Below, one piece after another: positions 2,100-27,782 of a DNA stretch of 64,000 bases. The position numbers were made by a program, and so were the translations under genes. The notes under the pieces are model-generated. The model was not told where the DNA came from. It did not search any database and worked only from the letters and a program-made list of their open reading frames with translations. The stretch lies in the NCBI GenBank assembly GCA_038064495.1, contig JBBTSZ010000002.1, positions 16,717 to 80,716 on the forward strand. Reading direction: 5' to 3'. The DNA comes from Patescibacteria group bacterium. GTDB taxonomy: Bacteria; Patescibacteriota; Minisyncoccia; Phycocordibacterales; Phycocordibacteraceae. Every line of letters starts with the position of its first letter. The stretch's first letter is position 1.

Positions 2100-3929
2100 C
2101 TACGTGCCAGCGGGAGCACTCTCGGCACCCAATCGGTCCTTTTCTCGCTTAATGGCAAGGAGTTGCGATGGGTCTGAGGTGATGATCTGGTCCTCGGTGT
2201 AGGACGCCACTACCTTTATGGCGACATGCTTGAGACCAGCAAAGAACAATCCCTCTCCCACCCCACTTTCAAGAAGTAAGAACTTCTCTTGGTCAGTCAG
2301 GTTAAATGTATCTTTGAGCACATCAATCGTTGTTGGAGATTGCTTTAGGAGAAGTTGGATACTGGAGTTGGTGAGAATCGGCCTACCGTAGGGGCTCTTT
2401 AAGAAGTCTTCGACATCTTGGGTGATGGTTGCGAGCCCGAGGAAATACTTACGACCACGCTTCGCCATACTGAAAAGGAAGGATGCTGTGTCCTCAGACT
2501 TCATCATCCACCAGGCCTCATCAATAACGAGCAAACGTTTCTTAAGCTCATGGCGAACTGCGTTCCATATATAGTGCGTGATGATATACATCGCGATAGG
2601 TTTCAATTCATCCTCCATGTCACGGACCGAGAACACGACAAACTGTTTTTTTATATCTATATTTGACGGACGATTAATAAATCCAGCCCAGGTTCCCTTC
2701 GTGTATTTAGAAAGTCGCTGTACCAAGGACTCGCTCCCTGACATACCTGACAACACAGTCTCAAAATCTGAAAGGAGCGGCGGTTCAACACCGGTAAAGT
2801 CCACATCTCCCGTAATATCCTTCAGGGCATAGGTTTCCGTGATGGCACGGTCCACAATCGCATCCTCTTCAGGCGTAAGTCCCCCAAGCATAAGTCGGAA
2901 GAGCCCGACGAGATTAATGATGTTTGAGCGAAGAATATCTCCCGGTTCCTCATCTTCTTTTACGGGTGGGAGGTCAAACGGATTAATATGATGCTCTGAC
3001 GAGAGAGAAATGTTGAAGGTACGACCGCCGGTAGCTTCTGCAAGGTATTCGTATTCTTGCTCGGGGTCTATCACGATGACATCCGTATCAAACATGAGGG
3101 AGCGAAGAATTTCCAACTTAACTGCGTAGGACTTTCCAGAACCGGATTTTGCAAATACGACTGAGTTGTAGTTCTCAAGTGAGAAACGGTCAAAGAGTAT
3201 GAGGGACGCATTGTGGCGGTTAATACCGTAGAGAATGCCGCGGTCACTTGTGAGGTCAAACGAGACAAACGGAAAAATAGACGAAAGGGGAGACGAATTC
3301 AACTTGCTGTTGACGGCTAGCTCATCAAGAGCAAGGGGAAGTGTGGAGCGGAAGCCCTGCTCTTGTTGGAAGAGTGCAGGCTTGGTGTACACAAGCTTCG
3401 CATCAAGAATGCCTCTGACTTCCCCTTCCACCGTATCAAGTTCTTCTTTGGTGTTTCCATAGAGTGTAAGATACAGCCCCACATCAAAAAGTTTTTCCTC
3501 TGCTTGCTGGAGACGGTCACGAAGACTTTCAAGGTCCTGATAGGCCGTATCAAGAAGCGGGTCACGAACAAGCCCTTTCTCCTCTCGCTCTGAAATCTGG
3601 CTTTGTACTTCAGCCACCTTCTTTTGGAAGTTACGAAGAGCTGCTGCAGTCTCTACGGGATGCACAAAAAGCCCGATATCAAGCTCACGTGCAAGGTTAA
3701 TGATTTGCACGAACCACTCGTCCGTAAGGAAGCGCGGATAGGAGATGGTGTAAAAGGAACGAGAAAACTTTTCACCGAGCTCTATCTCCTTGGCCCCTAC
3801 CTTGAGCGCTGCTGGCGCAATAGCATCAGCCAAATCAAGTGCACCTTGCGCATAGATATCTTTCGGTAAGACCGGCGTGACGCTCGGAGCTTCTTTTTTA
3901 TTACGGTTGATGAAATCAAGAAGTGCCAT
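2100..3929 (-). CDS. virB4: VirB4/TrbE/CagE-family conjugal-transfer ATPase, C-terminal 609-aa portion (Walker A GSGKS, Walker B LLVIDEAWW)
   Basis: Motifs FAKSGSGKSYAVK and RLLVIDEAWWMM in translation; family assignment from established VirB4 signatures. Confidence 0.8.
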   Translation of the reverse strand: MALLDFINRNKKEAPSVTPVLPKDIYAQGALDLADAIAPAALKVGAKEIELGEKFSRSFYTISYPRFLTDEWFVQIINLARELDIGLFVHPVETAAALRNFQKKVAEVQSQISEREEKGLVRDPLLDTAYQDLESLRDRLQQAEEKLFDVGLYLTLYGNTKEELDTVEGEVRGILDAKLVYTKPALFQQEQGFRSTLPLALDELAVNSKLNSSPLSSIFPFVSFDLTSDRGILYGINRHNASLILFDRFSLENYNSVVFAKSGSGKSYAVKLEILRSLMFDTDVIVIDPEQEYEYLAEATGGRTFNISLSSEHHINPFDLPPVKEDEEPGDILRSNIINLVGLFRLMLGGLTPEEDAIVDRAITETYALKDITGDVDFTGVEPPLLSDFETVLSGMSGSESLVQRLSKYTKGTWAGFINRPSNIDIKKQFVVFSVRDMEDELKPIAMYIITHYIWNAVRHELKKRLLVIDEAWWMMKSEDTASFLFSMAKRGRKYFLGLATITQDVEDFLKSPYGRPILTNSSIQLLLKQSPTTIDVLKDTFNLTDQEKFLLLESGVGEGLFFAGLKHVAIKVVASYTEDQIITSDPSQLLAIKREKDRLGAESAPAGT

Positions 3930-6686: not shown

Positions 6687-9374
6687 CTAAATAATTCCAC
6701 CCCAGCGCCTCCCTGCATCTGGATTCAAAGCTACCCCGCTGGTCATTCCAGTAAGAGCATCAAACCTAACAACTTCAGGTGAAGGTGCACCCGGTGCGGT
6801 GATGAGATTACGTATGTTGGTGATCGCAGTTCCGCTTAATTTATTTGGATCAAGAGCTGCAAGCTGTTCGCCTCGCATAGACCGAATAACATGATTCTGC
6901 TCAATAACAGAAGTAGGAAGCTTACTCACGCTCTCGTTTGTCAAAATGTTCAGTGTGTTCGGTGCATTCGCAACCGAGAAAAGATGGTTCCGGACATCGT
7001 TCATCGTGTTTGCACTCAATTTTCCAAAATCAATATTGTTAATTCGACCCGATGCAGTTAGAGCGTTCAGAGTATCTGTCTTCTTTAAGTTGTATTCAGG
7101 TATTTTCTTGAGAGCATCATCCGACATCGCATCAATGGTTACCCGAGCTCGTACCGGGTCATTGAAACGGTCATCACGAGCCTGTTGGAAGCCGTCTCGA
7201 ACGGACTGAGCGATATTTTTATTACTACCCACTTTATCGGCTTGGTCTTCCCGAACTACTGAGACAAAGTCGTAATCGCTTAATAACGAAGCACTTGCCT
7301 TCGATTGTGCAATTTGCTCAAAGCCTCGTTCACCCAATTTCTTAATCGCTGCATTAGCAGCATCACGAGCAGCAGTCCGTATCGGTGGAGCTTTCGTTGC
7401 ATCATTTGCTATGGCGAGACTCTCGCGAATCCCAACGTGGCGATTATCAAGCAGTCTTGCCTTCAGGTCCTCTGGCGTATCCTTGTACTTTAGAAGACTG
7501 CCAATTTTCTCATCAGAGAAAGCTTCAGCAACAGCTCTCCCTCCTTCTTGTACGGCATGTGATTTAAGTAGTTGTTCTTCTGAAAGCCCGTTAAGGAAAG
7601 TGGTTGTCTCTGCACTAAGAGCTCCTGCACGCGCTTCATCCTCAAGTTTTTGGAACGCCACTTCGTCGTCATACTTTTTCTTTAGCCCCTTGCCATACGT
7701 CCCGCTCTTAGCATCTGCAAAGACATGTCTAGTATCACTAAAGGTCGCGCCCTTGGATGGAATTGCTCCCGCCTTTATATCAGCGAGACCGAGTGCAGTC
7801 TGTGCAAGAGGGAGCCGTCGCGCATCAAGATTAGCACTTTGAAGCGGGCGCAGGATACGATTTACGGCAACTTGCCCGACCTTACCCCCGAACCCAGTTT
7901 TTTGCTGGAAACGTTGGAGTCCATACGCGTATCCTCCTACAGCCAGATTTGTTCCACGCGTCATGGTTCCAAACACAAGCGCACTCGCCGAGTTAACTGC
8001 AAAGTTTGAACCAAGCACACCCATACGACGTGAGGCGATGAGAGACATCATCATGAATCCGATAACAATGAAGAACAACACAAACGCTTGAAGATTTTGC
8101 GAAGCTCCAGCTACTGCCCCACCTGCGACAGCCTGCCCCAGATCACCCGTGGTACCAAGTCCAGAGCCAATCTTGATACTAATAAGAATGAGTAGCAGGT
8201 ATACCGGAGCAAAAAATGATTCGTTAAGAAGAAGACTCCACCAACGTTCAGCAAGTTTATGAAGTAAAGGCACTGCCATACCCGCAAAACCTATAGGAGA
8301 CGTCACAATTAAGAACACGAGAACAACCGCACGGCTGATAAGCATAATAGTCCCTGCGAGCAAGACAATCGCCACAATAGTGATGAGCAAAGAGTAAATC
8401 AACAAAAGAGTGATTTTCTCAAGAGGAGAACTACCTGTGGTAGAAGGGTCCGATCTAAAACCAAGAAACGTAGAACCACCGGTTAATTGCATAATCTGCC
8501 CCGAAATACCTTCATTAGCGCACGTCGTTGAGTCAGCACCAGTACAATTTGTACCAGCCTGTTCCGCAAGGACTGATGAGAAACCGTTAGCCACGTCAAT
8601 CACTGCTTCTGCAGCAAACAAACTAAAGTTAAGCAGTATCGCAAAGATAATAAGAGCAGGCAGCGCTCGCTTTGCCGTGAACTCCGACCGTTCAAGATTT
8701 AAAATAGTACTGACGCCCATGAAGATGAATCCGAATAAGAGAACTATATTGCCAACGTCTCGGAGTACTCCCCATGCAATCAAAAGACCTTCCGAGTTAC
8801 CAAAGTACTGAGCAAACTCAAATACCGTTTTGATAATGGTCCAGTTAAAAACGACACCGACAATCGTAAGAATCCATCCCGCAAGCGTAAACACTGCATA
8901 GCTAAGTGGGTAGAGTGTGACAGCAAGAAAACTATCTGCCAACCATCCAAACACGTCCGGGAATACTGAACTTGTTTCACTCGTACAACTTCCGTTCGCT
9001 GCACAGTTCGTGGTCGTACTCGCGAAATAGTTATTTTGAGAACCGGTTGAACCTAACAGTTTTCCAGAGGCATCTTTTGCAGTACACCCCTCATCCGAGA
9101 CGGCTGCTTCAGCACCACCACCAGCGGTACAGGTTGCGGTGCTACCAGCAGGATTTGTACAAGTATAGACCGTACTACCGAAACTGATCTCTGAAGTACA
9201 CGTCCAACCAGTACCGTACTTACCGGGGTTATTTGTGAGTGCCTCGGGCACGGTAGCTGCAAGGGTAATAGGGGCAACGCCAAATAAAACAAACAAGAAA
9301 GCAGTCCCCAGAAGAGCTCTACCCATCTTTTTTTGTATTAGGAAAGTGTTCACGGCAAGTGAAGCTATATACAA
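6687..9374 (-). CDS. VirB6/TrbL-like polytopic membrane protein with signal peptide and long soluble C-terminal extension
   Basis: 895 aa; N-terminal signal, Cys/Thr-rich ectodomain, then >=6 hydrophobic helices, then ~400 aa charged/alpha-helical tail; topology typical of VirB6-family channel proteins (inference). Confidence 0.5.
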   Translation of the reverse strand: MYIASLAVNTFLIQKKMGRALLGTAFLFVLFGVAPITLAATVPEALTNNPGKYGTGWTCTSEISFGSTVYTCTNPAGSTATCTAGGGAEAAVSDEGCTAKDASGKLLGSTGSQNNYFASTTTNCAANGSCTSETSSVFPDVFGWLADSFLAVTLYPLSYAVFTLAGWILTIVGVVFNWTIIKTVFEFAQYFGNSEGLLIAWGVLRDVGNIVLLFGFIFMGVSTILNLERSEFTAKRALPALIIFAILLNFSLFAAEAVIDVANGFSSVLAEQAGTNCTGADSTTCANEGISGQIMQLTGGSTFLGFRSDPSTTGSSPLEKITLLLIYSLLITIVAIVLLAGTIMLISRAVVLVFLIVTSPIGFAGMAVPLLHKLAERWWSLLLNESFFAPVYLLLILISIKIGSGLGTTGDLGQAVAGGAVAGASQNLQAFVLFFIVIGFMMMSLIASRRMGVLGSNFAVNSASALVFGTMTRGTNLAVGGYAYGLQRFQQKTGFGGKVGQVAVNRILRPLQSANLDARRLPLAQTALGLADIKAGAIPSKGATFSDTRHVFADAKSGTYGKGLKKKYDDEVAFQKLEDEARAGALSAETTTFLNGLSEEQLLKSHAVQEGGRAVAEAFSDEKIGSLLKYKDTPEDLKARLLDNRHVGIRESLAIANDATKAPPIRTAARDAANAAIKKLGERGFEQIAQSKASASLLSDYDFVSVVREDQADKVGSNKNIAQSVRDGFQQARDDRFNDPVRARVTIDAMSDDALKKIPEYNLKKTDTLNALTASGRINNIDFGKLSANTMNDVRNHLFSVANAPNTLNILTNESVSKLPTSVIEQNHVIRSMRGEQLAALDPNKLSGTAITNIRNLITAPGAPSPEVVRFDALTGMTSGVALNPDAGRRWGGII

Positions 9375-20571: not shown

Positions 20572-21489
20572 ATGGATGCCGAAACGCTTAAGCGACAATT
20601 CCTTGAACACACAGAAATCGAGCGCGGACGTGCCGTAAAGACGATTCAAAACTACGACCACTACCTCACGGTGTTGTTTCGGGAAATGAAGATAGCCAGT
20701 GTTATTGATATTACTGAGGAGAAGATTCGCGAATTCCGCTTGTGGTTGAATCGACAACCCGGAACAGGGAGCGACACCATGAAGCGCCGCACGCAAAACT
20801 ACTATCTCATTGCACTACGTGCTTTTCTGAAATATCTCCGAAAACGAGGCATAGATGGCCTGAACCCTGAGCGTATTGAGCTTGCCAAAGTACCTGAACG
20901 CTCGCTTGACCTTATTACCGCGACCGAGCTTGAGCGCCTGATGGAAGCCCCAAAGAACGCTATGGAAAAGGAACAGAATCCTGAGAAGGCGCTTCGGTAT
21001 GCCCGCGATACAGCCATTTTAGAGCTCCTTTTCTCCACGGGACTTCGTGTTTCTGAGCTCTGTGCACTTAATACCGACATAGATTTATCTCGAGACGAAA
21101 TCTCGGTTCGCGGAAAAGGAGACAAAGTTCGGGTGGTATTCCTATCCCCTGCTTCAAAAGACGCAGTTCGTGCGTATCAGAAACTCCGCAAGGATATGGA
21201 GGAGGCCCTCTTTCTTGAGGGTAGACCTGATAAGCTCCATCGCATTACGCCCCGTGATATACAGCGCCACATTAAGACGTATGCGGCGCAGGCAGGCATC
21301 ACCAGCAAGGTTACGCCCCACACGCTTCGGCACGTGTTCGCCACTGACTTGCTCAGTAATGGAGCTGATATTCGCTCAGTCCAGGCACTTCTGGGCCATG
21401 CCTCCATCACGACTACCCAGATTTATACGCACGTGACCGATGTGCACCTCCGAGAGGTACACAAACGTTTCCACTCACGACAAAAATAA
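20572..21489 (+). CDS. tyrosine site-specific recombinase, XerC/XerD-like
   Basis: Catalytic motifs HTLRHVFAT and LLGHASITTTQIYTHV. Confidence 0.85.
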   Translation: MDAETLKRQFLEHTEIERGRAVKTIQNYDHYLTVLFREMKIASVIDITEEKIREFRLWLNRQPGTGSDTMKRRTQNYYLIALRAFLKYLRKRGIDGLNPERIELAKVPERSLDLITATELERLMEAPKNAMEKEQNPEKALRYARDTAILELLFSTGLRVSELCALNTDIDLSRDEISVRGKGDKVRVVFLSPASKDAVRAYQKLRKDMEEALFLEGRPDKLHRITPRDIQRHIKTYAAQAGITSKVTPHTLRHVFATDLLSNGADIRSVQALLGHASITTTQIYTHVTDVHLREVHKRFHSRQK

Positions 21490-23085: not shown

Positions 23086-24549
23086 CTAGGATACGTTGTG
23101 TTTACTGAGTATTTCCTTGATTTCTTGCTCCTCTTCTTGCTCCTTCCTCTTTTTTCCTGAATCACCAAGTTCTTTCAACTCCTCATCTCCCAGTTTTAAT
23201 AGTTCCAGAACTCGATTTCCTAAGTAATCCTTAGTGTTGCTTTTAGGATTCTCAAGTACATCCTCTAGGAGTGTATGCAGGATATAGCCTATCTTTGGAC
23301 CTGGTTCCACGTGAAAGGTCCCCATAAGGTCATTTCCGTCTAGTTTGAGCATTCCCACTGATATAGGGTCTCGTAGTGCCTGGTCTACCATTGCCTTGTA
23401 CTTTCTGAATCTGAATGGCTGCTCCTTCGGTCGACCCGTACCAATTCGGTCACAAATCCTAAGATTGAGCAAATCTTCTATATTTTCATCACCAACGTTC
23501 TGAATCATGCGGCGAACGGCCGAAAGGGTGATTTGGTCAGGATCTGAAAAAAACATGTGCCAACGGACCAATTTACTCACCTTTTCAATAGTTTCACGTG
23601 AAAATTTAAGGTCTTCTAGTGCTTTTCGGGTTACACGTGAACCCACAACCTCATGGCCGTGAAAGGTCCAATCGTTCTTTTCGTCAGACCAGCGTCTTGT
23701 TTCCGGCTTAGATACATCATGGAAGAGGGCGGCGAGACGTATATCAAAAGGCCAGTCTTTGTCCGCTGCGTGCTGAAGCGAGCGCATAAGGTGGCCAAAA
23801 ACGTCGTAACTATGGGCTTGATTTTGATCTATCCCGATACCGCGCACCAGGTCAGCAGATATATATTTCAGAATATCCAGCTGTTGTGCCAGTACGAGGG
23901 CCATCATGGGGTTCTTTGACTCCAGGATACGCACAAGCTCATCGCGAATCCTTTCACGTGAAATGTGCGAGAGATTCGGACCCTTCTCCAGAATCGCTGC
24001 TGCCGTATCCGTATCAAGCGCGAAGTTCAATTCCGCGACAAGTCGTACTGCACGCATAACGCGTAGAGCATCTTCTTCAAAACGCTCCGTAGCAATGCCC
24101 ACGGTACGCAGTACTTTGGCCGAAATGTCCTTTTGTCCTTGATACGGGTCAACAATATGTCCTTTATCTTCATCAAGGGCGATAGCGTTTATGGTGAAGT
24201 CGCGGCGTGCAAGGTCACCCTCAAGACTGGTACCAAACTCAACAGCATCCGGACGACGCTTATCTGAGTATCCCGTTTCGGTACGATACGGTGTGACCTC
24301 TATAATTGAGAGGGTAGGGTCTTCGCTCTCTGTCTTCACGCCAACCGTACCAAAATCATTTTCGTAAAAAGAATCGGGGAATATTCGTTGAATATCTTCA
24401 GGCAATGCATTTGTCGTTATATCCCAGTCTTTAGGGGCTCGTTTGAGGAGAAGATCACGAACGCAACCACCCACTAAATAGGCCTCGAACCCTTCCTTAC
24501 GGAGACCATCTGCTACAGTCTTCACTTCAACCGGAACGTCCATCTTCAT
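23086..24549 (-). CDS. cca: CCA-adding tRNA nucleotidyltransferase / poly(A) polymerase family with HD domain
   Basis: GGCVRDLLL...DxD nucleotidyltransferase head and HD motif LFHDVSK. Confidence 0.8.
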   Translation of the reverse strand: MKMDVPVEVKTVADGLRKEGFEAYLVGGCVRDLLLKRAPKDWDITTNALPEDIQRIFPDSFYENDFGTVGVKTESEDPTLSIIEVTPYRTETGYSDKRRPDAVEFGTSLEGDLARRDFTINAIALDEDKGHIVDPYQGQKDISAKVLRTVGIATERFEEDALRVMRAVRLVAELNFALDTDTAAAILEKGPNLSHISRERIRDELVRILESKNPMMALVLAQQLDILKYISADLVRGIGIDQNQAHSYDVFGHLMRSLQHAADKDWPFDIRLAALFHDVSKPETRRWSDEKNDWTFHGHEVVGSRVTRKALEDLKFSRETIEKVSKLVRWHMFFSDPDQITLSAVRRMIQNVGDENIEDLLNLRICDRIGTGRPKEQPFRFRKYKAMVDQALRDPISVGMLKLDGNDLMGTFHVEPGPKIGYILHTLLEDVLENPKSNTKDYLGNRVLELLKLGDEELKELGDSGKKRKEQEEEQEIKEILSKHNVS

Positions 24550-25419: not shown

Positions 25420-25490
25420 GCGGATATGGTTTAGTGGTAGAACGCGTCCTTGCCAAGGACGAGGCGGGAGTCCGATTCTCCCTATCCGCA
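25420..25490 (+). tRNA. tRNA-Gly (anticodon GCC)
   Basis: Acceptor GCGGAUA/UAUCCGC, anticodon arm CGUCC-UUGCCAA-GGACG, T-arm GGGAG-UCCGAUU-CUCCC. Confidence 0.9.
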
Positions 25491-25499
25491 CTGTCGAGC

Positions 25500-25524
25500 A
25501 AAAGCACCCATGAGGGTGCTTTTG
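25500..25524 (+). terminator. hairpin + T-tract after tRNA-Gly
   Basis: GCACCCATGAGGGTGCTTTT. Confidence 0.5.
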
Positions 25525-25526
25525 CG

Positions 25527-25700
25527 TTAAGGACAGTGCGGATAGAGTACGACGTCCAACGTCGTACGTGGAGAATCGGAAGGCGGAACGGGGTACCCAT
25601 CCAACAGGATGGGTCGCGAGCCGGGGTCGCGGAATCTGCGAGTGACGACGAGCTCGTATCTGTGGCCGATAGTGTACTCACGGTCTCCCTGACATTTCTC
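25527..25700 (+). ncRNA. candidate structured RNA (~175 nt) closed by long-range helix GUGCGG...CCGCAC with >=4 internal hairpins; identity unknown
   Basis: Hairpins GUACGACG-UCCAA-CGUCGUAC, ACCCAUCC-AACA-GGAUGGGU, CGCGA-GCCGGGG-UCGCG, palindromic ACGAGCUCGU; terminal pairing GTGCGG(25527)/CCGCAC(25691); region otherwise only covered by mutually overlapping spurious ORFs. Confidence 0.3.
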
Positions 25701-25868: not shown

Positions 25869-26297
25869 TTGACCTCCACTAACGTCCTCTATACTTTAGC
25901 TATGGACATCTCTGGATTCAGTCGAAAAGAGATCGGAGCACTCGGAGAAAAGGTTGCCTGTGAGTATTTAAGGCGCAATGGTATGAAAATAGTGGCAAAA
26001 AATGTTGCTCGTAAAACGGGCGAGATTGATGTAATAGGAAAAGAGCACGACACGCTGCATTTCGTTGAAGTTAAAACAATTGTCTGTGAGGTGTTTCCGT
26101 CTGAAAGAAGTACTGACGACAGCTACGACCCATCAGCGAATTTACATGAGGCCAAAATACGGCGTGTGGCGCGCACGAGTGAATGGTACGTTGCATCTAT
26201 TGATTGGGAGGGGGAATGGCAGGTGGACGGGGTCTTGGTATGGCTCCGAAAGGCCGATGGGAGGGCGCTTGTTCGGTATCTGCCGCAAATCCTATAA
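25869..26297 (+). CDS. YraN/UPF0102 family endonuclease-like protein
   Basis: GE(K)xAxxYLxxxG...EIDVIGKE...HFVEVKT pattern; true start may be Met at 25902. Confidence 0.7.
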   Translation: MTSTNVLYTLAMDISGFSRKEIGALGEKVACEYLRRNGMKIVAKNVARKTGEIDVIGKEHDTLHFVEVKTIVCEVFPSERSTDDSYDPSANLHEAKIRRVARTSEWYVASIDWEGEWQVDGVLVWLRKADGRALVRYLPQIL

Positions 26298-26377
26298 ACC
26301 TGGTAGGATGCGTATAAGCGAGGTCGCTGTGCCCCTCGGGGCATGAGGCCTCGTTTGTTCGGTGCTTGCTGAGGGAA

Positions 26378-26528
26378 TCCGGTCATGAAGTAGCTCATTT
26401 GTTTTCGAATACTGTGTCGGGGTGTCGTATACCGGTAGTACGCTTGCTTTGGGAGCAAGATGACGGAGTTCGATTCTCCGCACCCCGACAGAGTATTTGA
26501 ATGAGTTCATGACCGGATCGACTCTTCG
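26378..26528 (+). repeat. imperfect inverted repeat (~35-40 nt arms) bracketing tRNA-Pro, plus a second 9-bp hairpin downstream
   Basis: 5' arm CCGGTCATGAAGTAGCTCATTTGTTTTCGAATACTGTG; 3' arm CAGAGTATTTGAATGAGTTCATGACCGG (reverse-complementary with indels); then CGACTCTTCGGGGAAGAGTCG. Confidence 0.55.
26418..26488 (+). tRNA. tRNA-Pro (anticodon UGG)
   Basis: Acceptor CGGGGUG/CACCCCG, anticodon arm CUUGC-UUUGGGA-GCAAG, T-arm CGGAG-UUCGAUU-CUCCG. Confidence 0.85.
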
Positions 26529-26585
26529 GGGAAGAGTCGGGTGACGAGTTCGATATTCAACCGCAAAGGCACTAATTGAAAGTAT

Positions 26586-27782
26586 CTATTTAAACCCAAT
26601 CGCCTTTGCGAGGAAGTTTCCGAGTTCTTGTATTTTCGTGCTGTACGAGTCGGTAGCATTCACCAGGCTCCCAGAGTCGTAGTACGTATCAAAGTCTCCA
26701 CCCGTGGCAGCTTTGAAGCTTCTACGCATATGCGTCGGCGTGATGACTCGTAGTTCACGCGTACTTTCGTCACCCGACAATTCGCTTGTGGTGATAAGTC
26801 CGATAAGCGCTCCTGAAGTGCTTACCGCTGCACCACCAGACGAACCTTCCTGAGCTGCCTTACCTCCATATATCGCAAGCACATCTGAACTCGTGGTAGT
26901 GAATGTGTAGACGTCTTTAATCTTTCCATACACGAGTGTTGGGGCGAGATGCGACGTTACTTCACTTGTCGTGAGGTACTGCGCACCATAGGAACCGAGT
27001 GCAACCTTTTGTCCGACGATGCCAGGCGATGTAGAAACATGAATAGCAGGATAGCTTCCTGGAAGGGGAGCACCGGTCGCACTACTTGTTATCGCAAGGA
27101 GCGCAAAATCATTTTCTCCCGTTCCGGTAGGTTGCGAACTAATGAGCGTGGTTGAGTTACTGCGCACCCAGGGTTCAGAGATATACAGCAGCTTACCTTT
27201 GTAGGCATTTTTTGCTGGGTTACCGGTACGAATAGCGCAGGAGATAACATTCTTGCCGAGAGTCTGTTCAAGCAGCACTGCCTGAGCAACGTGCGCAACA
27301 GTGAGTACGATTCCCCTGGAATCAATAATCACCCCGGTACCGGACACTCCGCGAAGTTGACTTGTGTGCGAGGTGCAAAGAATATTCACGACTGAAAGAG
27401 AAACAGTATCAAGAAGCGCGTCACCGGTTGAGCTCGCGGGGACGGGTGTTGTGGTTGCTACTGGAGCAGACCCGTTAGGAGTTGGAGGCTTTTGCAGGGG
27501 AGTCGGTTTGGTTGGTGTTGCTACCTCTGGCTTCGCTTTCGTGACTATCGCCTCAAGCCCAGGAACGAGAGACTCTACGGTTGTGGTCGGTACCGTAAAC
27601 ACAGGTGTTGTGGTCGGTACAAACGAACGGCTCACCCCTCCGACAGGGGTGAGCTTACCTTGGTTCGTGAGGGTTGAAACCGTTACTGCATTTGCTCCGG
27701 TATTGAAGTAGGAAATGAAGAGGGCAAGAGCAAGGGCTCCAAACGCAGCCAAAACATGCTCAACGTGCTGTCGCATTCCCAC
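26586..27782 (-). CDS. secreted/membrane-anchored trypsin-like (S1 family) serine protease
   Basis: His (LTVAHVA), Asp (NDFALLAI), Ser (GSSGGAAVS) catalytic-motif regions; N-terminal hydrophobic anchor. Confidence 0.75.
   Translation of the reverse strand: MGMRQHVEHVLAAFGALALALFISYFNTGANAVTVSTLTNQGKLTPVGGVSRSFVPTTTPVFTVPTTTVESLVPGLEAIVTKAKPEVATPTKPTPLQKPPTPNGSAPVATTTPVPASSTGDALLDTVSLSVVNILCTSHTSQLRGVSGTGVIIDSRGIVLTVAHVAQAVLLEQTLGKNVISCAIRTGNPAKNAYKGKLLYISEPWVRSNSTTLISSQPTGTGENDFALLAITSSATGAPLPGSYPAIHVSTSPGIVGQKVALGSYGAQYLTTSEVTSHLAPTLVYGKIKDVYTFTTTSSDVLAIYGGKAAQEGSSGGAAVSTSGALIGLITTSELSGDESTRELRVITPTHMRRSFKAATGGDFDTYYDSGSLVNATDSYSTKIQELGNFLAKAIGFK

Follow-up and report, generated by a model that had tools for sequence, protein, structure and literature searches.

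An unusual leader-trailer helix around a tRNA-Pro gene in a Kaiserbacteria-like Patescibacteria genome

A tRNA-Pro(UGG) gene in a 64,000-nt stretch of a Patescibacteria genome (contig JBBTSZ010000002.1; here called the window, within which all positions are numbered) lies between two complementary arms, 26377-26417 and 26488-26518, that lengthen the acceptor stem of the tRNA, and a hairpin adjoins the second arm. This succession of arm, tRNA, arm, and hairpin is a real and unusual precursor structure in which leader-trailer pairing is met in a new variant, and some Kaiserbacteria-like Patescibacteria conserve it as a module at the corresponding site downstream of yraN. The organism of the window is itself Kaiserbacteria-like; homologs of its YraN carry the names Kaiserbacteria or Paceibacterota. 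On balance we lean toward the view that the module acts as an RNA clamp and processing platform for a tRNA that sits inside the scars of nuclease-driven gene replacement.

The helix around tRNA-Pro(UGG) and its conservation

The inverted repeat is, by its predicted fold, the DNA image of an RNA helix in which the end of the 5' leader pairs with the start of the 3' trailer. Features were called with ARAGORN, Rfam, and minimum-free-energy folding with shuffles. The inner helix sets T26417-T26404 against A26488-A26501 over 14 positions, with one G·G and one G·U; the middle helix pairs CTCATT (26394-99) with AATGAG (~26500-05), and in the outer helix ATCCGGTCATGAA (26377-89) meets TTCATGACCGGAT (26506-18) with 13/13 positions paired. 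The helix is thus made up of 14 + 6 + 13 bp (~33 bp) and is interrupted by two bulges (4 and 6 nt), both on the 5' strand. The enclosed tRNA has the acceptor stem CGGGGTG/CACCCCG and discriminator A73, with C74 encoded and CCA not encoded, and its sequence recurs letter for letter in three related loci (L047, L061, and L067). The minimum-free-energy fold predicted for 26370-26545 retains cloverleaf, long helix, and hairpin at -86.8 kcal/mol (z = -8.5), a value that 0/200 shuffles reached. The arm-arm duplex alone gave -37.6 kcal/mol, compared with -11.7 +/- 3.0 for 1000 shuffles (z = -8.6).

A first-pass annotation of the window had described the flanks of this tRNA as mutually complementary, the precursor as a long helix with the tRNA inserted in it, and the sequence behind the right arm as a 9-bp hairpin. 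The arms, the fold, and the hairpin at 26519-26539 bear out all three points, and the folding check that it named found stable pairing of the arms. It had also confined the helix to tRNA-Pro, and indeed none of the other three tRNAs of the window has a contiguous leader-trailer helix. No further copies of the arm sequences were found within the window, which speaks against the alternative it had raised of an unrelated palindromic repeat occurring without tRNAs. Its likening of the site to a bulge-helix-bulge context did not hold up: the interruptions are bulges of 4 and 6 nt on the same strand, and 3-4-3 geometry is absent from the junctions. The comparison with RNase III-type processing stems is plausible by analogy and is taken up below. 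What it missed were the pieces of older tRNA-Pro in the flanks, the 14-15 bp core helix shared with relatives, and the recurrent replacement of tRNAs at this locus.

Relatives were represented by 80 genome loci gathered via YraN and >100 metagenome loci gathered via the tRNA-Pro 5' 24-mer; 217 loci were fetched in all (cited by number), and ~600 tRNAs from these related loci were scored for arms. The score counts pairs over the 14 positions outward from -1:73, and genes with at least 11/14 contiguous pairs were taken as arm-bearing. For tRNA-Pro(UGG) the distribution is bimodal, with 24/178 genes reaching at least 11 pairs and 22 of these having 13-14. The same threshold was reached by 0/110 Gly(UCC), 0/101 Gly(GCC), 0/88 Arg(UCG), 0/25 Phe, 0/25 Ile, and 0/23 Met genes. 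Exceptions occur in single loci, namely, Val and Ala in L097, Pro(GGG) in L098 and L134, and Pro(CGG) in L156. The earlier description of the design as unusual is therefore upheld by its frequency in tRNA-Pro(UGG) and its near absence from all other tRNAs scored.

Arms of 14-15 nt that are homologous to the inner arm of the window occur in L150, L207, L008, L036, L013, L047, L039, and L159. Over the 21 distinct arm-bearing loci, the arm sequences form at least two families plus singletons, and 13/14 arm pairs vary on both sides. The non-Watson-Crick cells in these loci comprise 27 G·U, 3 A·C, and 7 other combinations, and the G·U bias follows the strand of the tRNA even where the gene is inverted (L031). 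A DNA palindrome would give both transition mismatches equally, in contrast to the excess of G·U; pairing therefore seems to be kept in the sense RNA, and this pattern of substitutions indicates that it is maintained by selection on the sense-strand RNA.

Other properties of the module are also constant. Helix length is 14-15 bp in 16/21 loci, and the helix persists across species whose YraN identity is 31-78%. A hairpin of 8-10 bp stands directly behind the arm in almost every arm-bearing locus and has itself undergone compensatory changes (for example, cgActc..gagTcg in the window versus cgGctc..gagCcg in L150). U-1:A73 is paired in 21/21 loci and G-2:C74 in 19/21, and there is no bubble at the cleavage site. 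At L139, the arm begins right after the promoter, and the outer tRNA remnants described in the next section are absent; the helix thus belongs to the precursor as such.

The long helix of the window can probably be read as the usual 14-15 bp arms, either extended or made composite. Compared with nine relatives, its outer 19 bp are extra on either side, the left block being absent from all nine, and the right-hand partner of the outer helix is conserved in the outer layer of L150. These 19 bp contain no mismatch, even as the homologous right arm of L150 has diverged at ~3 positions. Across the 217 related loci, the outer-arm motif was found only in this genome's own copies and in one homologous layer in L150; two isolated 11-mer matches, in L156 and L195, were taken as chance.

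Older tRNA-Pro pieces in the flanks and nested genes in relatives

As far as alignment with relatives can indicate, an older tRNA-Pro has left decayed pieces on both sides of the tRNA-Pro of the window, which enters behind the GGG of the older anticodon loop (Table 1). The outer remnant upstream of the arm aligns with CTGCTGAGGGA (L159), TTGCAGAGGGA (L207), and CTGCTGTGGGA (L150). L159 keeps nearly the full outer 5' half, and L144 and L076 keep an intact ..GCTTTGGG just before the arm. The insertion point, 37/38, is clear in the latter two loci, where ..GCTTTGGG is followed by the arm and the 3' remnants begin from ~nt 40; the window has a decayed ..GCTGAGGGA. On the 3' side, the block that starts with ACCGCAAAGGCACTAATTGA interrupts the outer T-stem/acceptor junction in L005, L008, and L150 (GATGACGGAGTTCGATTCTCC ACC.CAAGGG.ACTAATTG).

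The leader is predicted to be ~100 nt long, with the promoter ~110 nt before tRNA-Pro, and the promoter appears to overlap the end of yraN. A TGnTA(G/A)(G/A)(A/G)T block is retained at the same noncoding spot in the aligned leaders of relatives, and in front of each of the other three tRNAs of the window a similar TGnTAnnnT stands 7-15 nt from the 5' end. A simple sigma-70 scan missed the -10 box because the -35 element is weak. Between its promoter and the outer remnant, the predicted transcript folds into hairpins, and by eye this part weakly resembles the D-loop insert AAGCGGAGC..CTTCGCT..CCTCGAACAAA of L007, L053, L067, and L076. Arm-bearing genes lie a median of 91 nt from yraN, compared with 23 nt for the common arm-less CGGGCCG-type gene. 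Two other assignments for the arms were tried and rejected. The left arm resembles the TGATATACTGT box upstream of an HNH-like open reading frame (ORF) found in relatives, but if it were the promoter of the tRNA, transcription would start inside the tRNA, and the G·U bias says that the arm is transcribed. If the structure were a terminator serving both yraN and the protease gene, which converge, its loop would be the whole tRNA, and a U tract is absent.

Table 1. Features at the tRNA-Pro locus of the window
Feature	Position	Strand	Basis and remarks
Probable promoter, extended -10 box TGgTAGGAT	26301-26309	+	Directly after the yraN stop; conserved in relatives
Structured leader GTATAAGCGAGGTCGCT..GCCTCGTTTGTTCGG	26313-26360	+	Tentatively an outer tRNA-Pro 5' part with D-loop insert, decayed; weak homology
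Putative outer tRNA-Pro remnant GGTGCTTGCTGAGGGA	26361-26376	+	Anticodon-stem 5' strand and loop, ending GGGA; positional alignment
Outer left arm (ATCCGGTCATGAA, GTAG bulge, CTCATT, loop)	26377-26403	+	Inverted-repeat pair, 13/13; predicted structure
Inner left arm TTCGAATACTGTGT	26404-26417	+	Pairs with 26488-26501, continuous with acceptor stem; homologous arms in relatives, covariation
tRNA-Pro(UGG)	26418-26488 (ARAGORN/Rfam 26418-26488/9)	+	ARAGORN; Rfam tRNA, 57 bits; read as the functional copy
Right arm ACAGAGTATTTGAATGAGTTCATGACCGGAT	26488-26518	+	Begins with A73 and C74, pairing U-1 and G-2; homologous to the trailer behind the L150 outer 3' remnant
9-bp hairpin CGACTCTTC-GGG-GAAGAGTCG	26519-26539	+	GGG loop; adjoins the right arm; conserved part of the module
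Putative decayed 3' part of older tRNA-Pro GGTGACGAGTTCGATATTCA (variable region, T arm), then start of block ACCGCAAAGGCACTAATTGA	26540-26579	+	Alignment with L150, L005, and L008

In several relatives the older gene is preserved well enough that one tRNA-Pro is seen to stand inside another. Two layers are present in L007, L053, L067, L144, and L200, and three layers are present in L076, L150, L156, and L174. The outer 5' side of L007, L053, and L067 consists of nt 1-20, a D-loop insert of ~75 nt, and nt 21-37 ending in GGG; there follow the arm, the inner tRNA-Pro, the second arm, the hairpin, a short spacer (GGCCCCGAA in L007), and nt 40-72 of the outer gene, and the predicted fold of this type closes the outer acceptor and T arms. 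L144 and L200 have the nested layout without the D-loop insert. In these nested loci the outer gene breaks off on its 5' side at ..TTTGGG and is picked up again near the 3' strand of the anticodon stem (BLAST q40-71). The acceptor sequence usually differs between inner and outer copies, and the inner copy would therefore have come from elsewhere. The outer right-arm addition of the window is conserved behind the outer 3' remnant of L150, which suggests that the gene of the window represents an older layer that has since been overlaid in L150. No account of such nested tRNA genes turned up in the literature that was searched.

Partial copies of tRNA genes are common at these loci. Downstream of the live gene, L013, L052, L042, and L005 carry direct repeats of the tRNA 3' part, with the break in the anticodon loop, and 5-14% of the Pro, Gly, and Arg genes have a tRNA self-fragment of at least 12 nt within 300 nt, in either orientation, where ~0.4% would be expected by chance. 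Other layered arrangements were also observed. L193 (reverse strand from 3325) has a tRNA-Pro(CGG) with a T-loop insert of ~115 nt that holds no inner tRNA, and L098 has an outer tRNA-Pro with a T-loop insert and two successive 3' remnants. In L097 (8440-9240), tRNA-Val(UAC) and tRNA-Ala(UGC) share the design of the tRNA-Pro module: each unit opens with the 5' piece of an outer tRNA that stops in the D loop and further has structured spacers and complementary 13-bp arms around a complete tRNA of a different sequence type, and in the Ala unit an outer T arm and acceptor 3' strand follow.

Archaeal tRNA introns canonically lie at position 37/38, and Nanoarchaeum has split tRNAs encoded as half-genes. 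It could accordingly be supposed that the outer tRNA-Pro is the gene and that arm, tRNA, and arm are removed from it at 37/38, or that the arms hold a split tRNA together. The insertion in relatives does follow G37, the canonical archaeal and eukaryal intron site, and a helix of ~14 bp between two halves recalls the Nanoarchaeum arrangement. We nevertheless consider this reading extremely improbable. What is left of the outer gene in the window comprises neither the 5' strand of the acceptor stem nor the D arm, and only a decayed T arm; relatives usually lack the 3' strand of the outer anticodon stem (e.g., L076), and the outer 5' and 3' parts can differ in type (L008, L013, and L144). The 3-4-3 bulge-helix-bulge geometry is absent, no splicing-endonuclease domain was seen among the ~40 window ORFs scanned, and there was no Rfam intron match. 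Here the host is a bacterium, the outer halves are decayed, and the helix caps a complete tRNA. For the window, a bulge-helix-bulge intron or a split tRNA is essentially excluded. A permissive Rfam search (E up to 10) of the window region and ten related loci returned tRNA and noise only, which rules out a known ribozyme, intron, or riboswitch.

Mobile elements provide two further comparisons. Williams is said to have described in 2002 that integrative elements in tRNA genes leave tRNA 3' halves duplicated at their att sites. The direct repeats of the 3' part and the break in the anticodon loop are alike; here, however, there is neither an integrase nor an element body, and 5' fragments also pile up upstream. 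Integrase-mediated insertion was rejected on these grounds, with only 27-120 nt between the live tRNA and the 3' remnants. The sole tyrosine recombinase of the window (20572-21489) is Xer-like, lies 5 kb away, and is syntenic in all relatives. Group I introns are found in tRNA genes of Patescibacteria, and some carry HNH genes (PMC13011429). The phylum and the anticodon-loop target are the same, but the insert here is a complete tRNA and no ribozyme is present; a group I intron in the anticodon loop was rejected since no covariance-model match was found in the window or in relatives and the inserts are far too short.

The nested copies raise the question of whether the arms function in DNA rather than in RNA, as the terminal inverted repeats or recombination sites of a nonautonomous tRNA-Pro cassette that targets the resident anticodon loop, with pairing that matters as a cruciform or hairpin. 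In nested copies the left junction is fixed in place behind GGG, GCTGAGGGAAT is met as a junction in layers independent of one another, and several arms start with GTCA and finish with TGAC. Layers recur, and arm families are homologous between them, the inner arms of L150 and L076 resembling older-layer arms. We nonetheless regard a DNA-level element as unlikely. Mismatches are strand asymmetric (27 G·U versus 3 A·C), and the arm sequences diverge freely yet stay paired; the module is present at the tRNA-Pro locus and never elsewhere, with no clean target-site duplication beyond GGG. The layers of L150 are explicable by unequal recombination between alleles at a shared GCACCCCGAC, and L139 has arms without outer remnants. 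A transposon resembling a miniature inverted-repeat transposable element was rejected because the arms are unique in the window, the module is confined to a single locus, and a clean target-site duplication is missing.

The inverted repeat could also be a scar, left by template switching or palindrome extension at a hairpin-prone site and without function here. Such events would not be foreign to these loci: tRNA self-fragments are common, an unrelated inverted duplication of the tRNA-Gly(GCC) 3' end surrounds a terminator nearby (25536-25580), and in L094 the junction upstream of the ORF has a short fold-back, TTTGGGAG..CTCCCAAA. The arms of the window can, moreover, be dispensed with in silico, as detailed below. 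A neutral origin of this kind is quite unlikely in our view, as it leaves unexplained a helix kept with compensatory changes across species, its constant length of 14-15 bp, the conserved hairpin adjoining it, the G·U bias, and the perfect pairing of the outer 19 bp in the window despite divergence of the homologous L150 arm.

Nuclease genes beside tRNA genes and the proposed role of the helix

In relatives, small nuclease genes adjoin tRNA genes. In L033 and L079, the space from yraN to tRNA-Pro is taken up by an HNH-like ORF of 125-135 aa, which reads into the tRNA 5' end; its occurrence at this site is patchy (2/80 genome loci). In L094, a homolog lies between a tRNA-Pro truncated at TTTGGGAG and a new, complete tRNA-Pro. 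Over the loci cited for the family (L033, L079, L094, L215, L216, and L217), with Campbellbacteria and Saccharibacteria among them, the ORF lies directly 5' of a complete tRNA-Pro(UGG) in 6/6 contexts, and in 5/6 it is preceded by the hairpin TTTGGGA-N11-TCCCAAA, which consists of the anticodon-loop sequence and its complement. Usually a -10-like box also precedes it, placed as for a leaderless mRNA. The family comprises at least 170 protein clusters (homologs at E <= 1e-6), none with a recorded Pfam domain, and its invariant positions are C..C, D-HH, N, and C..C-H. Matches in PDB are weak (McrA and Hpy99I), and the L094 ORF alone had no significant match to Pfam or NCBIfam. A second group consists of GIY-YIG ORFs of 81-100 aa (Pfam E = 1e-17; L135/L198 and L208-L214). 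In every context examined, these have a duplicated tRNA[1-21] and a conserved structured block (TCGCCTCAYCGGCGACCYGCCGAAGAGGCRGG) on the 5' side and a complete tRNA-Pro(CGG) or tRNA-Gln on the 3' side, and in L135 the stop codon lies inside the tRNA-derived repeat.

The closest known system for these genes is SegB of phage T4, a free-standing GIY-YIG endonuclease in a tRNA gene cluster that acts by intronless homing (PMC2330249). The relatives are alike in having small nuclease genes directly beside tRNA genes, patchy in distribution and flanked by duplicated pieces of the target tRNA, such as gene conversion from a nuclease-bearing donor would leave. They differ in that the genomes are cellular, the ORF is fused to a full replacement tRNA (with its stop inside the tRNA 5' end), and old copies nest. 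It is possible, and we offer this tentatively, that small nuclease genes in Patescibacteria are selfish cassettes that break essential single-copy tRNA genes in a loop and survive by bringing replacements, that nested genes accrue as a result, and that helix and hairpin allow the innermost, live tRNA to fold and to be freed from a transcript crowded with dead half-tRNAs. This proposal assigns the unannotated HNH-like family to tRNA-Pro(UGG) and the GIY-YIG family to tRNA-Gln and tRNA-Pro(CGG). A replacement tRNA would again be a target, so that repeated rounds could build nested (Russian-doll) tRNA genes. No homing-type nuclease ORF is present in the window at 26297-26586, and the locus would at most be a decayed, nuclease-less descendant of such a cassette. 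Viral contigs scanned for the tRNA-Pro 5' 24-mer gave no match and thus no sign of a phage vector.

We hypothesize that the helix works at the level of the transcript, as a clamp and a platform for processing. It would pin both ends of the live tRNA and make of it an independent folding domain amid look-alike half-tRNAs, which could then not mispair with it, and it would provide a double-stranded handle to be cut or unwound ahead of RNase P. An RNase III-type cut is the simplest guess for this opening; the 3' end would then be trimmed to C74 and completed by the CCA-adding enzyme, which is encoded 2 kb away. The locus itself would be a hot spot at which nuclease cassettes swap in their own tRNA copy and leave fragments of the old gene behind. 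Folding in silico is consistent with the clamp. The outer pieces in L013, L008, and L150 closely resemble the inner tRNA, and shuffling of the left arm lowered the probability of the inner acceptor stem from ~1.0 to 0.18, 0.39, and 0.51, respectively.

Flanks that form a long duplex around a mature RNA are known from the processing stems of bacterial rRNA, which are RNase III substrates. Here the duplex is ~33 bp with two bulges and covaries; unlike the rRNA stems, it surrounds a single tRNA with no gap to the acceptor stem, and in relatives it is mostly 14-15 bp, which is short for RNase III. In the known cases from bacterial pre-tRNAs, the leader and the 3'-RCCA form 2-4 pairs, which act as a mild anti-determinant; a leader that pairs so as to prolong the acceptor stem impedes bacterial RNase P, and the pairs need unwinding (Zhu et al. 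2022, PMC9433436). The likeness lies in the pairing of N(-1) with the discriminator and of N(-2) with the next C, and L042 pairs UGGU with an encoded ACCA; the difference is that the pairing here spans 14-33 bp, is conserved and specific to tRNA-Pro, and has a fixed hairpin behind it. A paired leader of this length would therefore require prior cutting or unwinding. In MALAT1, a leader-trailer helix beyond the acceptor stem of mascRNA is required for efficient RNase P processing (PMC8457004), and there too a tRNA-like domain with an extended acceptor stem is embedded in a long transcript. That system is eukaryotic and needs a bulged A by the cleavage site, whereas the helix here is continuous through the site. 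A special route for this tRNA would also have a parallel in Escherichia coli, where tRNA-Pro undergoes a one-step 3' maturation by RNase E that depends on C1 (PMC5291269, PMC8860583). A tRNA-Pro with C1:G72 may accordingly have its own precursor route, distinct from that of other tRNAs; the E. coli route involves RNase E, an encoded CCA, and removal of the terminator, and the window has RNase Y and no CCA.

The same hindrance of RNase P could be the purpose of the helix, which would then be a regulatory brake that keeps a stable, inactive precursor until a helicase or nuclease opens it. When N(-1) and N(-2) are paired to the 3' end, bacterial RNase P is inhibited in its catalytic step-up (PMC9433436), and the nearly invariant U-1:A73 and G-2:C74 pairs leave the cleavage site without a bubble. 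This is quite unlikely, however, given that no condition-dependent element is evident, that throttling tRNA-Pro would be costly for small genomes with single-copy tRNAs, and that an extended acceptor stem aids RNase P on eukaryotic tRNA-like substrates (PMC8457004).

Several points weigh against a clamp and processing platform amid scars of gene replacement. Correct folding of the window's own transcript in silico does not depend on the arms (0.98 with the arm shuffled), since its remnants are decayed. A helix that runs unbroken through the RNase P site acts as an anti-determinant for the bacterial enzyme (PMC9433436) and could slow maturation, and no RNase III domain was found among the ~40 window ORFs scanned. 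The promoter, the limits of the transcript, and every processing step are predictions from sequence. The 21 loci used for covariation were selected for pairing, and the percentage paired is thus circular; the independent evidence consists only of the bimodal distribution with its empty middle, the variety of arm sequences, and the asymmetry between G·U and A·C. The HNH assignment is weak, with 4/26 members matching Pfam HNH (best E = 3e-5). The link between module and cassette consists of a shared locus and a shared junction (..GGG / TTTGGGA), and there is no intermediate with both arms and a nuclease gene.

If the module is a working precursor element, it would be a lineage- and tRNA-Pro-specific addition to bacterial tRNA maturation. 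It would, if true, contradict the rule that a paired leader hinders RNase P and would point to an unrecognized opening step under a minimal RNA-processing machinery. The context indicates that the streamlined genomes of the candidate phyla radiation, too, hold layered tRNA-gene fossils, tied to two small nuclease families that adjoin tRNAs, and it gives a concrete functional hypothesis for the HNH-like family. It also offers an explanation for flips in gene orientation and for xenologous replacement of tRNAs and is a possible cause both of assembly breaks at tRNA loci in metagenome bins and of tRNA misannotation.

Gene neighborhood and other observations

The locus lies in a conserved neighborhood. 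The order in the window is Xer-type recombinase, exonuclease III, CCA-adding enzyme, tRNA-Arg, tRNA-Gly, yraN, tRNA-Pro, protease, tRNA-Gly, and RNase Y, and the part from Arg through Gly, yraN, Pro, and protease to the second Gly is preserved nearly everywhere among related loci. The protease 3' of tRNA-Pro is trypsin-like and lies on the opposite strand, convergent with yraN. YraN (25902-26297; UPF0102, with a nuclease fold) adjoins tRNA-Pro upstream in 80/80 genome loci and does so even in the metagenome loci L133 and L200, where YraN identity is only 31-36%; its sole match in PDB is an uncharacterized UPF0102 structure. All four tRNAs of the window encode the discriminator and C74, without C75 and A76 (25378-79, 25490-91, 26488-89, and 27933-34), and the gene for the CCA-adding enzyme (23086-24549) is in the same cluster.

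Single tRNAs at these loci can change orientation within an unchanged gene order. In 12/80 loci tRNA-Pro lies inverted with respect to yraN, and Gly(GCC) and/or Arg(UCG) is inverted in ~11 loci; the inverted tRNA-Pro genes carry an inverted, decayed copy of the promoter region at the end of yraN. Inversion between the arms as the source of these flips was rejected, since it is this promoter copy that the inverted loci carry instead. In the window, tRNA-Gly(GCC) (25420-25491) is followed by a canonical terminator (~25501-25526), past which there is an inverted partial copy of the 3' end of the tRNA: 25536-45 and 25570-80 are the reverse complements of nt 63-72 and nt 52-62, respectively. At its T-stem/acceptor junction the copy holds an inserted hairpin of 24 nt, and it looks like a fossil of an oppositely oriented tRNA-Gly.

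Assemblies also tend to break at this site. Three independent assemblies of the same genome (L002, L003, and L004), for which Hainich groundwater is the habitat, stop inside tRNA-Pro at ~26435, 26440, and 26460, and contigs of relatives (L007, L051, L071, L078, and L087) end within a few hundred bases of yraN. These breaks at tRNA-Pro and yraN suggest repeats or strain heterogeneity at the locus. Elsewhere in the window, among unannotated ORFs, a VirB4/TraG-like ATPase (2100-3929) and a weak TrbL/VirB6-like protein (6687-9374) are encoded; together with PilB/PilC, ComEC, and ComM, these point to machinery for DNA uptake or transfer.

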